Source: Escherichia coli | GTDB taxonomy: Bacteria; Pseudomonadota; Gammaproteobacteria; Enterobacterales; Enterobacteriaceae | Reading direction: 5' to 3' (one strand) | DNA: 64,000 bases | Assembly (NCBI RefSeq): GCF_017348835.2 | Contig: NZ_CP071375.1 | Shown here: piece after piece, positions 60,001 through 63,000 of the stretch | Numbering within the stretch: the first letter of the stretch is position 1 | How the letters are laid out: each line of letters starts with the position of its first letter | Program-made: the position numbers

Positions 60001-63000
60001 CAATCAATTCTTTTCATCTTTATAAATTCTCATATCAGGCTTGCACCCGATAAACCGACGAAAACTATTTAAAACCCATCGAGTGAAGTAATCTCTAAAA
60101 CCAAAGAAATACCAAGTGAAAATATTCACGATAAAATGCCCGGTCAAAGCCCCTCCTGTACCGCATGCAAGAACAGTAAAAAATCAGATGTTTTCATAAA
60201 TATCAGTCCTCATCGTTTTGCCTGGCATGTCCTTTACCAGCAATCTTCTGTATGCACTAAGCCTAGATAGAATCCACTCAGTGTACACTGAAGCCCGCTC
60301 GACGCTTTCTTGTTCGTAACTTCGATTTTAGTCAATTACCTTGTTTTCCTCGCACGATGTCTTAGCCACCGGATATCCCACAGGTGAGCCGTGTAATTGA
60401 AGGTTTTTACGTCAGATTCTTTTGGGATTGGCTTGCGTTTATTTCTGTAGCGTTTCGTTGGAAGGTATTTGCAGTTTTCGCAGATGATGTCGGTGAAACT
60501 TCGTCGCTGTCGCCTCATGCCGCCCTCCTGACGCCCTGCCCGATCGCCATCAATGCCGCTTTGGATACGGTAGTAAACATCCGTCGAGGACTGATGAACG
60601 GTCGCCAAATCAGCAGCATGGAGCCTTTACTGTTTCCCTTCTTCTCCAGCCCTGTCGATGGTTCGATAAAATTAATCCGTCCATCAGTGATAATGCGAAC
60701 TTCGTCAACACTCTCCAGAGCCTTGCTGAACCATCCGACAGACATATCCTCTGGCACAAGCATCACTACCGTCTGTCGCTGTTGTATGCACTGCTCAGCG
60801 GCTTTTTCCACCCACGGCCTGATATTGCTGTAAAGGTTGACTTAAATCGACCAGTAACAAGTAGCCTTTTGAAGAGGATCAGAAATGGGAAGAAGGCGAA
60901 GTCATGAGCGCCGGGATTTACCCCCTAACCTTTATATAAGAAACAATGGATATTACTGCTACAGGGACCCAAGGACGGGTAAAGAGTTCGGATTAGGCCG
61001 AGACAGGAGGATAGCAATCACTGAAGCAATACAGGCCAATATTGAGTTGCTATCCGGGAACAGGCGTGAGTCACTGATAGACAGAATTAAAGGCGCTGAC
61101 GCAATCACTCTTCATGCGTGGCTTGACCGATATGAAACAATCCTCAGCGAGAGGGGTATCAGGCCGAAAACTCTACTCGACTACGCCAGCAAAATCAGGG
61201 CAATCCGAAGAAAATTGCCGGACAAACCGCTCGCTGACATATCAACGAAAGAGGTGGCAGCAATGCTAAACACCTACGTAGCAGAAGGTAAAGCGGCTTC
61301 CGCAAAATTAATCAGGTCAACCCTTGTTGACGTTTTTCGTGAGGCAATAGCCGAGGGGCATGTGGCTACGAATCCGGTAACAGCAACCCGCACAGCAAAA
61401 TCAGAAGTAAGGCGTTCAAGACTGACAGCTAATGAATATGTCGCGATTTACCATGCAGCCGAACCGCTCCCAATCTGGCTGAGGCTGGCAATGGATTTGG
61501 CTGTCGTTACAGGGCAGAGAGTAGGCGATTTATGCAGAATGAAATGGTCAGACATAAACGACAACCATCTTCACATTGAGCAGGGTAAAACAGGGGCTAA
61601 GCTCGCCATTCCGCTGACGCTAACGATTGACGCGCTCAATATCTCATTGGCTGATACACTACAGAAATGCAGGGAGGCCAGCGGCAGTGAAACAATAATT
61701 GCATCAACGCATCACGAACCGCTTTCCCCGAAAACAGTATCTAAGTATTTTACAAAGGCGAGAAATGCATCTGGACTCTCATTTGATGGAGACCCGCCAA
61801 CATTCCATGAACTGCGCAGCCTGTCGGCGAGGCTATACCGGAATCAGATTGGCGATAAGTTTGCTCAACGTCTTCTCGGGCATAAATCAGATTCAATGGC
61901 GGCGCGTTACAGGGACAGTCGCGGGCGGGAGTGGGACAAAATTGAAATATCATAATGGTTTTATTTTGATTAATAATGACCAGCGCACATTAACATATTG
62001 ATAATTAATGAAATTTTTAATATACAACTTCCATGTCATAAGTTGTTGCAGACTGACTGCGCGCATTCCGTTGTCAGTTTTCGTGGCGCTTCCGGTGTGG
62101 TAGATGACGTAACGCCCCATCCAGACCATTAAGTGCTGGGCATCGCCCTGATCGAAAAAAATCATATCGCCAGGCAGCGCCTGGTTTATGTCCTGGCCAA
62201 TAAACTGGCTGTTGTACTGAATCAAATTAATCGCGGTCACGTAGGGGCCGGTTTTCCCGTTCCCCTGATTCCAGTTTTGCGCCAGTTGACGCTGTTCAGG
62301 TGTTAGCGACATCTCTGGCGGCAAATACTGGTTAGATAACCCGTTACTTTTTAGCCATTTACTGTCGTGAACTTTCAGCGCCTCGTTCGCTGCAAATCGC
62401 ACCAGGCCCGCACAATCCTGCTGATACCAGCGTGGACTTGGCCCCTGGCGGAGCTGTTCCTGTGCAATGCGTACAAACCAGGCGCGAAACAGCCCGGATT
62501 GTTCGACATTCAGCATTTCGCTATGGGCAACAACACAACACAGCCAGCAAATCAGAGCCAGCAGCCCGTGCCTCATAGCGGCTGCCAGGTTATGGGTAGC
62601 CACTGCCAGGCGACACCGGGTTCCATCTGGGCCAGCTTCATGACATAACGCGGTTGTTGAGATAAAGCGTCCAGCTTCGGCATTAATAAAGTTTGTGCGG
62701 CGTTATAAAAAACCGGTTCGAGATTCTTCGGCAGACTGGTCAGCGTTTCGTTACGCAGCAGTTTCGCCATTCCTTGTGGATTGATATAGAGCGGAACGAT
62801 GCCATCAGTGGGTATTACATCTACCATTGCCGGGCGGGTTTTATTCAGTGTTTGCAGGGCGTTATTAACCAGCGTGTCATCGAGGGAGAAAAGCAGCGTT
62901 TTGTTTTGCATCGCCAGCGACACGCGGAAAAAATAATCCGACATTAATTGATCGGGTTGCGCCGCCTGCGCTTTCAGATACTGACCGTATCGGGAACTCA

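Follow-up and report, generated by a model that had tools for sequence, protein, structure and literature searches.

We analysed a 64,000-nucleotide stretch of Escherichia coli DNA (contig NZ_CP071375.1 of assembly GCF_017348835.2; hereafter the window) in which a degraded lambdoid prophage interrupts the 3′ end of yfaT, a homologue of Pseudomonas aeruginosa MagC (family DUF1175). In the course of events that we propose, a lambdoid phage with an HK022-type module (the integrase Int with its P and P′ arms) would have integrated there by Int-mediated site-specific recombination, with strand exchange within the 7-bp overlap TGACATG, and would later have decayed to 13.86 kb, with truncation of xis. 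The yfaT frame now enters the C′ site and the P′ arm, stays open for 25 codons by chance and ends 6 bp inside int. The last beta-strand of the NlpC/P60-like YfaT protein is lost without replacement, most probably leaving YfaT non-functional, and the operon is split, while the likely ribosome-binding site and start codon of the next gene, yfaS (ATG 48159), persist at the int-distal junction. We give this account as a whole, from HK022-type integration through decay to YfaT loss and the operon split, a probability of about 0.85.

The prophage site lies within yfaT

A 1-kb query spanning the int-yfaT junction was compared with 5,426 complete E. coli genomes. Matches were found in 5,395 of them and in nearly all of these homology set in at query base 329, which is window position 62028; in 175 genomes it ran across the junction into int. 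With 401 bp around the centre of the reconstructed empty site as query, the match was unbroken in 5,199 of the 5,426. Lysogens make up about 3% of complete genomes. At the other end of the island the left flank matches K-12 as far as 48178, the right flank taking up the match from 62028, and in a three-way alignment of both island ends with K-12 the only identity common to all is CTTCCATGTCA. This 11-bp core consists of the 7-bp overlap plus four identical bases from one flanking site:

62028..62038, 11-bp block CTTCCATGTCA at the int-proximal junction (BOP′, conventional attL)
62032-62038, 7-bp overlap CATGTCA at this junction, between the phage C′ site CAACTTC (62025-62031) and bacterial TAAGTTG (62039-62045)
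48168..48178, 11-bp block CTTCCATGTCA at the int-distal junction (POB′, conventional attR)
48172-48178, 7-bp overlap at this junction, between bacterial GTCCTTC (48165-48171) and the phage C site GAAGGAG (48179-48185)
48179..62027, degraded lambdoid prophage remnant, 13.86 kb

The exchange region, the overlap TGACATG, falls in yfaT codons 180-182 (M-T-W). The prophage site is thus intragenic, in the 3′ end of yfaT: the K-12 gene extends 72 nt plus the stop codon past the core. A yfaT ending before the core, which would have made the site intergenic, was found neither in K-12 and ATCC 25922 nor in the other species examined, and the original prediction that the insertion rewrites the C-terminus of YfaT stands.

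Repeats of 10 to 11 bp are expected by chance across 64 kb, and one could suspect that the insertion did not involve Int and a core at all, the 11-bp repeat being fortuitous or the product of some other mechanism that duplicates its target. A repeat search between a 250-bp junction stretch and the 64-kb window did yield 23 chance 10-mer matches; for this reason we dropped such a search as a core finder in itself and required the empty-site comparison. We take the 11-bp repeat as real because it matches both homology breakpoints exactly, as judged against thousands of empty sites, and flanks an int-bearing island of low guanine plus cytosine (GC) content (0.34-0.46 inside, 0.51-0.53 outside). 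It also stands exactly where HK022 has its core, with HK022-like arms on either side, the joined POP′ is found uninterrupted elsewhere, and the junction is common to independent lysogens to the base. A chance or duplication origin is effectively refuted.

An HK022-type integrase with a different core

The gene at the int-proximal junction encodes a lambda-family tyrosine integrase:

60885..61955, plus strand, int, 356 aa

Its Pfam matches (Arm-DNA-bind_1, 7.3e-29; Phage_int_SAM_1 / Phage_int_M; Phage_integrase, 4e-41) comprise the arm-binding, core-binding and catalytic domains of a heterobivalent integrase. The protein shows 98% identity with HK022 Int and 97% with Gally Int, and each of its residues is present in one or the other save at the C-terminal end, where a single S356 stands in place of D356-K357, making it one residue shorter than HK022 Int. 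At the five positions which we take to separate lambda from HK022 specificity (lambda N99, S282, G283, R287 and E319; Dorgai et al. 1995) it has D, P, K, K and R, as do HK022 and Gally.

The likeness extends to the attachment site. Over both arms, the reconstructed POP′ matches the int-attP region of Gally (91%) and those of HK022 and mEp235 (90%). Its arms align to the annotated HK022 attP and carry arm-type and integration host factor (IHF)-like sites on both the P and the P′ side. As in HK022, int adjoins P′; the order and spacing of the arms, the arm-type and IHF-like sites and the sib/tI hairpin also agree with HK022, at a sequence identity of about 90%. The elements located are:

48179..48369, plus strand, P arm, aligning to HK022 attP
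48278-48287, exact arm-type site CAGTCACTAT in the P arm
48289 (P arm) and 62003 (P′ arm), predicted IHF-like sites
48330-48369, sib/tI-type hairpin with T-run in the P arm

Repeats resembling the P′1-3 arm-type sites are weaker matches, recognised by eye only.

The core, in contrast, is not that of HK022. The reconstructed attP reads CAACTTC-CATGTCA-GAAGGAG and the attB GTCCTTC-CATGTCA-TAAGTTG (11 bp of identity): the same 7-bp overlap lies in both between imperfect inverted core-type sites. The HK022/Gally core is CAACTTA-TTCACCT-AAAGGAT, so that a 9-bp block (the overlap and one base on each side) has been exchanged, with 1 of 9 positions in common. The overlap of HK022 and its attB (AGGTGAA / TTCACCT) is accordingly not found at either junction. 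The different overlap and flanking bases account for a bacterial site in yfaT instead of the HK022 attB. HK022 Int accepts any overlap sequence provided that attP and attB match, and about 5 bp of each flanking site are enough for it (PMC7736782). Read from these sequences, integration would have been catalysed by an unchanged HK022-type Int, and the new target would be most simply explained by a change in the DNA core, not in the protein.

The exact 21-bp COC′ occurs uninterrupted, between the same arms, in 12 IMG/VR contigs. We considered these contigs as free phage genomes and dropped the idea, as the copy inspected (one contig) sits inside another prophage. In this contig (UViG_2511231131_000006, 10958-14098) an uninterrupted attP lies between a truncated nleA and a 5′-truncated int, followed by an nleH-like gene; given the truncated int and the nleA and nleH-like genes around it, we regard this attP as a fossil in another prophage. 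The IMG/VR matches confirm the sequence of POP′, not an active phage, and the nleA-attP-int block appears to move as a fossil cassette within other effector-carrying prophages.

It is on balance slightly favoured that we are looking at a natural retargeting of an integrase without protein change, in which an HK022-type Int came to work with an attP whose 9-bp core centre had been replaced, the resulting lineage then spreading nleA/nleG in enterohaemorrhagic E. coli (EHEC) O111, pig strains and Shigella flexneri. Such a retargeting would shift the phage from the HK022 attB to the coding sequence of yfaT. In engineered systems, Kolot, Yagil and colleagues have reportedly found that the overlap sequence alone sets the target; the yfaT site would be the natural counterpart of that engineering, and would provide a site pair for studying the origin of new attP cores.

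The yfaT frame reads through the P′ arm

The yfaT start was taken from the RefSeq annotation of strain PE164, which is 100% identical over window 61700-62700. The open reading frame (ORF) spans 61950..62603 on the minus strand and, from this ATG, 61950..62576 (208 aa). The last host codon (62028-62030) encodes K183, at the end of ...QQLMTWK. The stop codons of the two convergent genes (TGA 61950-61952 for the hybrid yfaT, TAA 61953-61955 for int) lie in a 6-bp overlap, 61950-61955:

61950..62576, minus strand, hybrid yfaT (MagC/DUF1175 homologue), residues 1-183 from the host and 184-208 phage-derived
61953..62027, minus strand, the 25 phage-derived codons, running through the C′ core site and, in the P′ arm, one IHF-like site and three sites resembling arm-type sites
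48093..48182, minus strand, orphaned native 3′ end of yfaT; the equivalent stretch is a DUF1175 pseudogene fragment in RefSeq

The claim that the frame continues for about 25 codons through P′-arm DNA and stops 6 bp inside int is correct in all its numbers, and the DNA that is read through is indeed the P′ arm, with its C′ site, IHF-like site and three lambda-like arm-type sites. A native tail of similar length had also been foreseen: K-12 has 24 aa beyond K183 and the hybrid has 25, for total lengths of 207 and 208 aa.

This similarity of length is not a shared feature of lysogens. Others break at the same K183 yet end after three residues (LHV*) or six (LYIKIS*); ...MTWKLHV* comes from a Shigella flexneri relative whose P′ arm has diverged, the six-residue tail from another E. 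coli variant. Since the tail differs among lysogens, we see the 25 codons and the 6-bp overlap with int as accidents of read-through and not as an end supplied by the phage. The 'NFI' common to native and hybrid tails was rejected as a sign of homology, as the DNA alignment has no similarity outside the core.

The Shigella flexneri element (GCA_049894925.1, 4500-5334 of the compared stretch) has the same yfaT junction and an HK022-like int that ends in ...EWDKIEIDK and is broken off partway through the gene. It is an independent or older relative.

The insertion removes the most conserved segment of YfaT

Native YfaT matches P. aeruginosa MagC (PDB 7BK8) over residues 21-206, tail included (E 1.8e-103). 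Against PF06672 (DUF1175, named 'MagC' in newer Pfam releases; cut-off 27) it scores 195.9 bits over profile positions 20-225 of 226, while the hybrid scores 156.6 bits over 20-202, a drop of 39 bits. The integration therefore disrupts a conserved domain, as in cases of regulated gene integrity or active lysogeny.

To see how conserved the lost tail is, we used 28 homologues with 62-81% identity to K-12 YfaT, from Pseudomonas, Serratia, Aeromonas, Salmonella and Methylococcales. Thirteen of the 24 tail positions are invariant (D184, T185, R186, W187, P189, N193, P194, N195, F196, G198, R201, L202 and L205). The lost DTRWIP..NPNF.G..RL.FL segment is the most conserved part of YfaT, near-invariant across MagC/DUF1175, and the hybrid tail has none of the invariant residues. 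RefSeq nevertheless labels the hybrid an intact DUF1175 protein. In an AlphaFold2 (AF2) model of native YfaT the last beta-strand is formed by residues 196-202 and the tail has a predicted local distance difference test (pLDDT) score of 87-90; for the hybrid the last three blocks fall to 57/56/46, a weak comparison as the tail columns of the alignment belong to the native sequence. Since the phage DNA supplies no replacement for this segment, YfaT is most probably inactivated by the insertion.

Could the insertion nonetheless be innocuous, with the extreme tail of YfaT being dispensable or the P′ arm providing a working substitute? A precedent exists in phage 21 and e14, which likewise use a lambdoid Int-family recombinase to enter a protein-coding gene, icd, at its 3′ end. 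These elements bring their own copy of that end and keep the gene functional. The nearly unchanged length of the hybrid, its intact label in RefSeq, the position of the catalytic-type Cys and His residues upstream of the junction, and a low-confidence strand that AF2 places at hybrid residues 194-199 would all fit such a scenario. But unlike in phage 21/e14, no part of the attP here is similar to the 3′ end of yfaT. The P′ arm has its homologue in HK022, a phage with another integration site, and so was not shaped for the end of YfaT; the segment replaced is the family's most conserved and lies within the Pfam domain; and tails of three and six residues in related lysogens argue that there is no selection for keeping a substitute. 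With no invariant residue in the hybrid tail, the 39-bit loss and tails that vary, this is not a target-restoring integration of the icd type, and we hold an innocuous insertion to be unlikely.

The start of yfaS and its relation to the core

The gene next to yfaT encodes an alpha-2-macroglobulin of the MagD type:

43555..48159, minus strand, yfaS, pseudogene, with a TAG at 47326-47328

The original prediction had placed the yfaS start codon within the left att core, with a native yfaT-yfaS overlap of about 70-80 bp and prophage DNA now upstream. How much of this holds depends on which of three candidate starts is used, all on the minus strand:

48172-48174, ATG inside the 7-bp overlap, without a Shine-Dalgarno sequence in either the native or the lysogen arrangement; 82-nt overlap with yfaT
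48157-48159, ATG (favoured), 9 bp outside the core, with GGAAGGA six nt upstream and partly in the core; 67-nt overlap with yfaT
48067-48069, GTG (RefSeq, 1,504 aa), well outside the core, after a 23-nt gap from the yfaT stop

The ATG at 48174, the outermost in-frame ATG of yfaS, does lie in the core, but it has no Shine-Dalgarno sequence; for the likelier ATG at 48159 the core holds not the start codon but part of the Shine-Dalgarno sequence. The overlap between the native genes is probably real, 67 or 82 nt according to the ATG, and disappears if the RefSeq GTG is correct. With either ATG everything further upstream is P-arm DNA, in line with the claim that the upstream region of yfaS is now prophage.

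The yfaS start probably lies inside yfaT, about 30 codons upstream of the RefSeq GTG. MagD is periplasmic and has a signal peptide (PMC3735191, PMC5764988), whereas the RefSeq start falls eight residues before the conserved mature N-terminus DDSLPSS and leaves no signal peptide. In Pseudomonas homologues (the N-termini of seven database matches) canonical signal peptides precede the equivalent [ED]D..PS.Y motif, and this contrast is what makes the internal start the more likely. A search with the YfaS N-terminus yielded only fragments of at most 470 aa, which do not show full-length starts. In E. coli and in the Salmonella and enteric relatives examined, the yfaT stop coincides with or closely precedes the beginning of the signal peptide's hydrophobic core, and canonical upstream starts exist only inside yfaT. 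Gene calls in other species put the yfaS start after the yfaT stop, or 4 bp before it; we do not count them against an internal start, as the enteric signal peptides would then be without a charged n-region. In Pseudomonas, magD starts and magC stops within a shared 4 bp (ATGA), while in E. coli the yfaS start is probably 64-79 nt upstream of the yfaT stop.

The nonsense codon at 47326-47328 (minus strand; CAG in K-12) divides yfaS into ORFs of 282 and 1,247 codons, and the gene is flagged as a pseudogene in PE164 by RefSeq. K-12 yfaS is also flagged as a pseudogene, its stop lying outside the K-12 stretch compared, and the gene is intact in ATCC 25922 and in the O111:H8 strain 8B. From this distribution yfaS seems to have been lost repeatedly in E. 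coli.

The insertion splits a mag-type operon

The neighbours of yfaT are a DUF2138 (MagB-type) gene and the alpha-2-macroglobulin (MagD-type) gene, and on this basis we take yfaA-yfaT-yfaS-yfaQ-yfaP to be a mag-type operon (PMC3735191, PMC5764988). The order DUF2138 - MagC - alpha-2-macroglobulin is kept in four species and is that of P. aeruginosa magABCDEF. Unlike in magABCDEF, no magA-type gene precedes yfaA in the E. coli stretch examined, where the next gene upstream is gyrA. The island parts yfaS-yfaQ-yfaP from yfaA-yfaT and from any promoter upstream of yfaA, and operon transcription into yfaS would thereby be lost. In this strain the nonsense codon in yfaS makes the alpha-2-macroglobulin operon defunct in any case.

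A number of points weigh against a full loss of YfaT and of downstream expression. The hybrid keeps part of the NlpC/P60-like core, including Cys55, His148 and His160, and may retain residual function. The AF2 comparison of native and hybrid proteins is no stability test, given that the tail columns of the alignment misfit the hybrid, and the P. aeruginosa papers are inconsistent on the effect of magC deletion on MagD processing. Promoter-like sites at the int-distal junction are at chance level (4 found, 3.9 expected), and the same scan found no terminators there, which tells nothing about yfaS transcription. Finally, yfaS is intact in O111:H8 lysogens: genes downstream of the island are not generally decaying, and may be expressed from another, putative promoter.

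Content, decay and distribution of the remnant

Apart from its att module, the remnant contains two effector genes and a truncated excisionase gene:

48784-50025, nleA
50719-51366, nleG
60782..60907, plus strand, truncated xis, whose last 26 codons match Pfam Exc (positions 48-77 of 77)

To judge by annotated relatives it also holds insertion sequence (IS) and tail-fibre fragments, a holin gene, the Q antiterminator, ninG, ninE, xis′ and int. The truncated xis adjoins a fragment of a phage N6-adenine methyltransferase gene. A 590-aa ORF (58060-59832, plus strand; 34% GC, hypothetical in RefSeq) lies between the ninG/HNH genes and ninE, which is the usual place of lambdoid replication and immunity genes; it is divided into two ORFs in the O111:H8 strain 8B, and its product could be an effector or other cargo. 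Pfam and NCBIfam scans found no family match for this ORF, NleA or NleG.

Many EHEC O111:H8 genomes carry the remnant, with 86% of its length matched at 98% identity, and it recurs in the pig strains PE164 and F2_81 at 99.8-99.9% identity. With xis cut to its last 26 codons, it is probably locked in place in the strain analysed here. The O111:H8 strain 8B, on the other hand, has a full 219-bp xis and intact int and yfaS.

These features bear on a further scenario, that of regulated gene integrity or active lysogeny, in which the prophage would be a reversible switch and would excise to restore yfaT and its operon whenever the cell requires the alpha-2-macroglobulin system. The coexistence of intact xis, int and yfaS in strain 8B and the use of the same attB by several diverged elements speak for it, as does the candidacy of yfaT in the relevant passages of Mageeney et al., based on domain disruption and on the occurrence of interrupted and uninterrupted alleles (PMC7192596). 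Yet the window does not have the intact int and xis pair needed for precise excision, and with yfaS a pseudogene excision would not restore the system; moreover, lysogens represent only about 3% of complete genomes. A switch appears slightly less likely still than an innocuous insertion.

Discussion

As a prophage target yfaT is already catalogued, and the present case is a rediscovery. In their passages on this gene, Bobay et al. 2013 list yfaT among the core genes disrupted by prophage integration (PMC3603311), and Mageeney et al. 2020 (TIGER) name yfaT/DUF1175 among their candidates for 'regulated gene integrity', on two islands of 14 kb and 50 kb (PMC7192596). There, the DUF1175 entry has an attB/attLR Pfam score ratio of 1.21 and a shortened C-terminal end (PMC7192596), a ratio reproduced by the 195.9 and 156.6 bits obtained here. 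The entries Eco615.14.DUF1175 and Eco557.50.DUF1175 share target gene and kind of disruption with the element in the window; one is 14 kb, like this element, and may be the same. The yfaT/DUF1175 passages of the two papers make no mention of the HK022 relationship or of variable read-through tails, nor of the MagC identity, a structural role of the lost tail or a mis-annotated yfaS start.

What we add is the close match to HK022, of 98% for Int and about 90% for the att arms, around a different attP core. The body of the phage also sets it apart from HK022, being a decayed, effector-carrying remnant around an overlap that reads CATGTCA and not TTCACCT. The feature is real but ordinary in kind and overturns nothing in current understanding; the HK022-type Int with a new core adds modest interest. 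The yfaT locus offers a natural HK022-type Int with a different core, which can be used to study shifts of integration site. On the side of annotation, the RefSeq call of an 'intact' DUF1175 protein for the hybrid is in doubt, and so is a GTG start that leaves yfaS free of a signal peptide. For the organism, in about 3% of complete E. coli genomes, and notably in EHEC O111:H8, an effector-carrying remnant has probably knocked out the MagC homologue, and the type II alpha-2-macroglobulin operon, an envelope system, is split in those lysogens.

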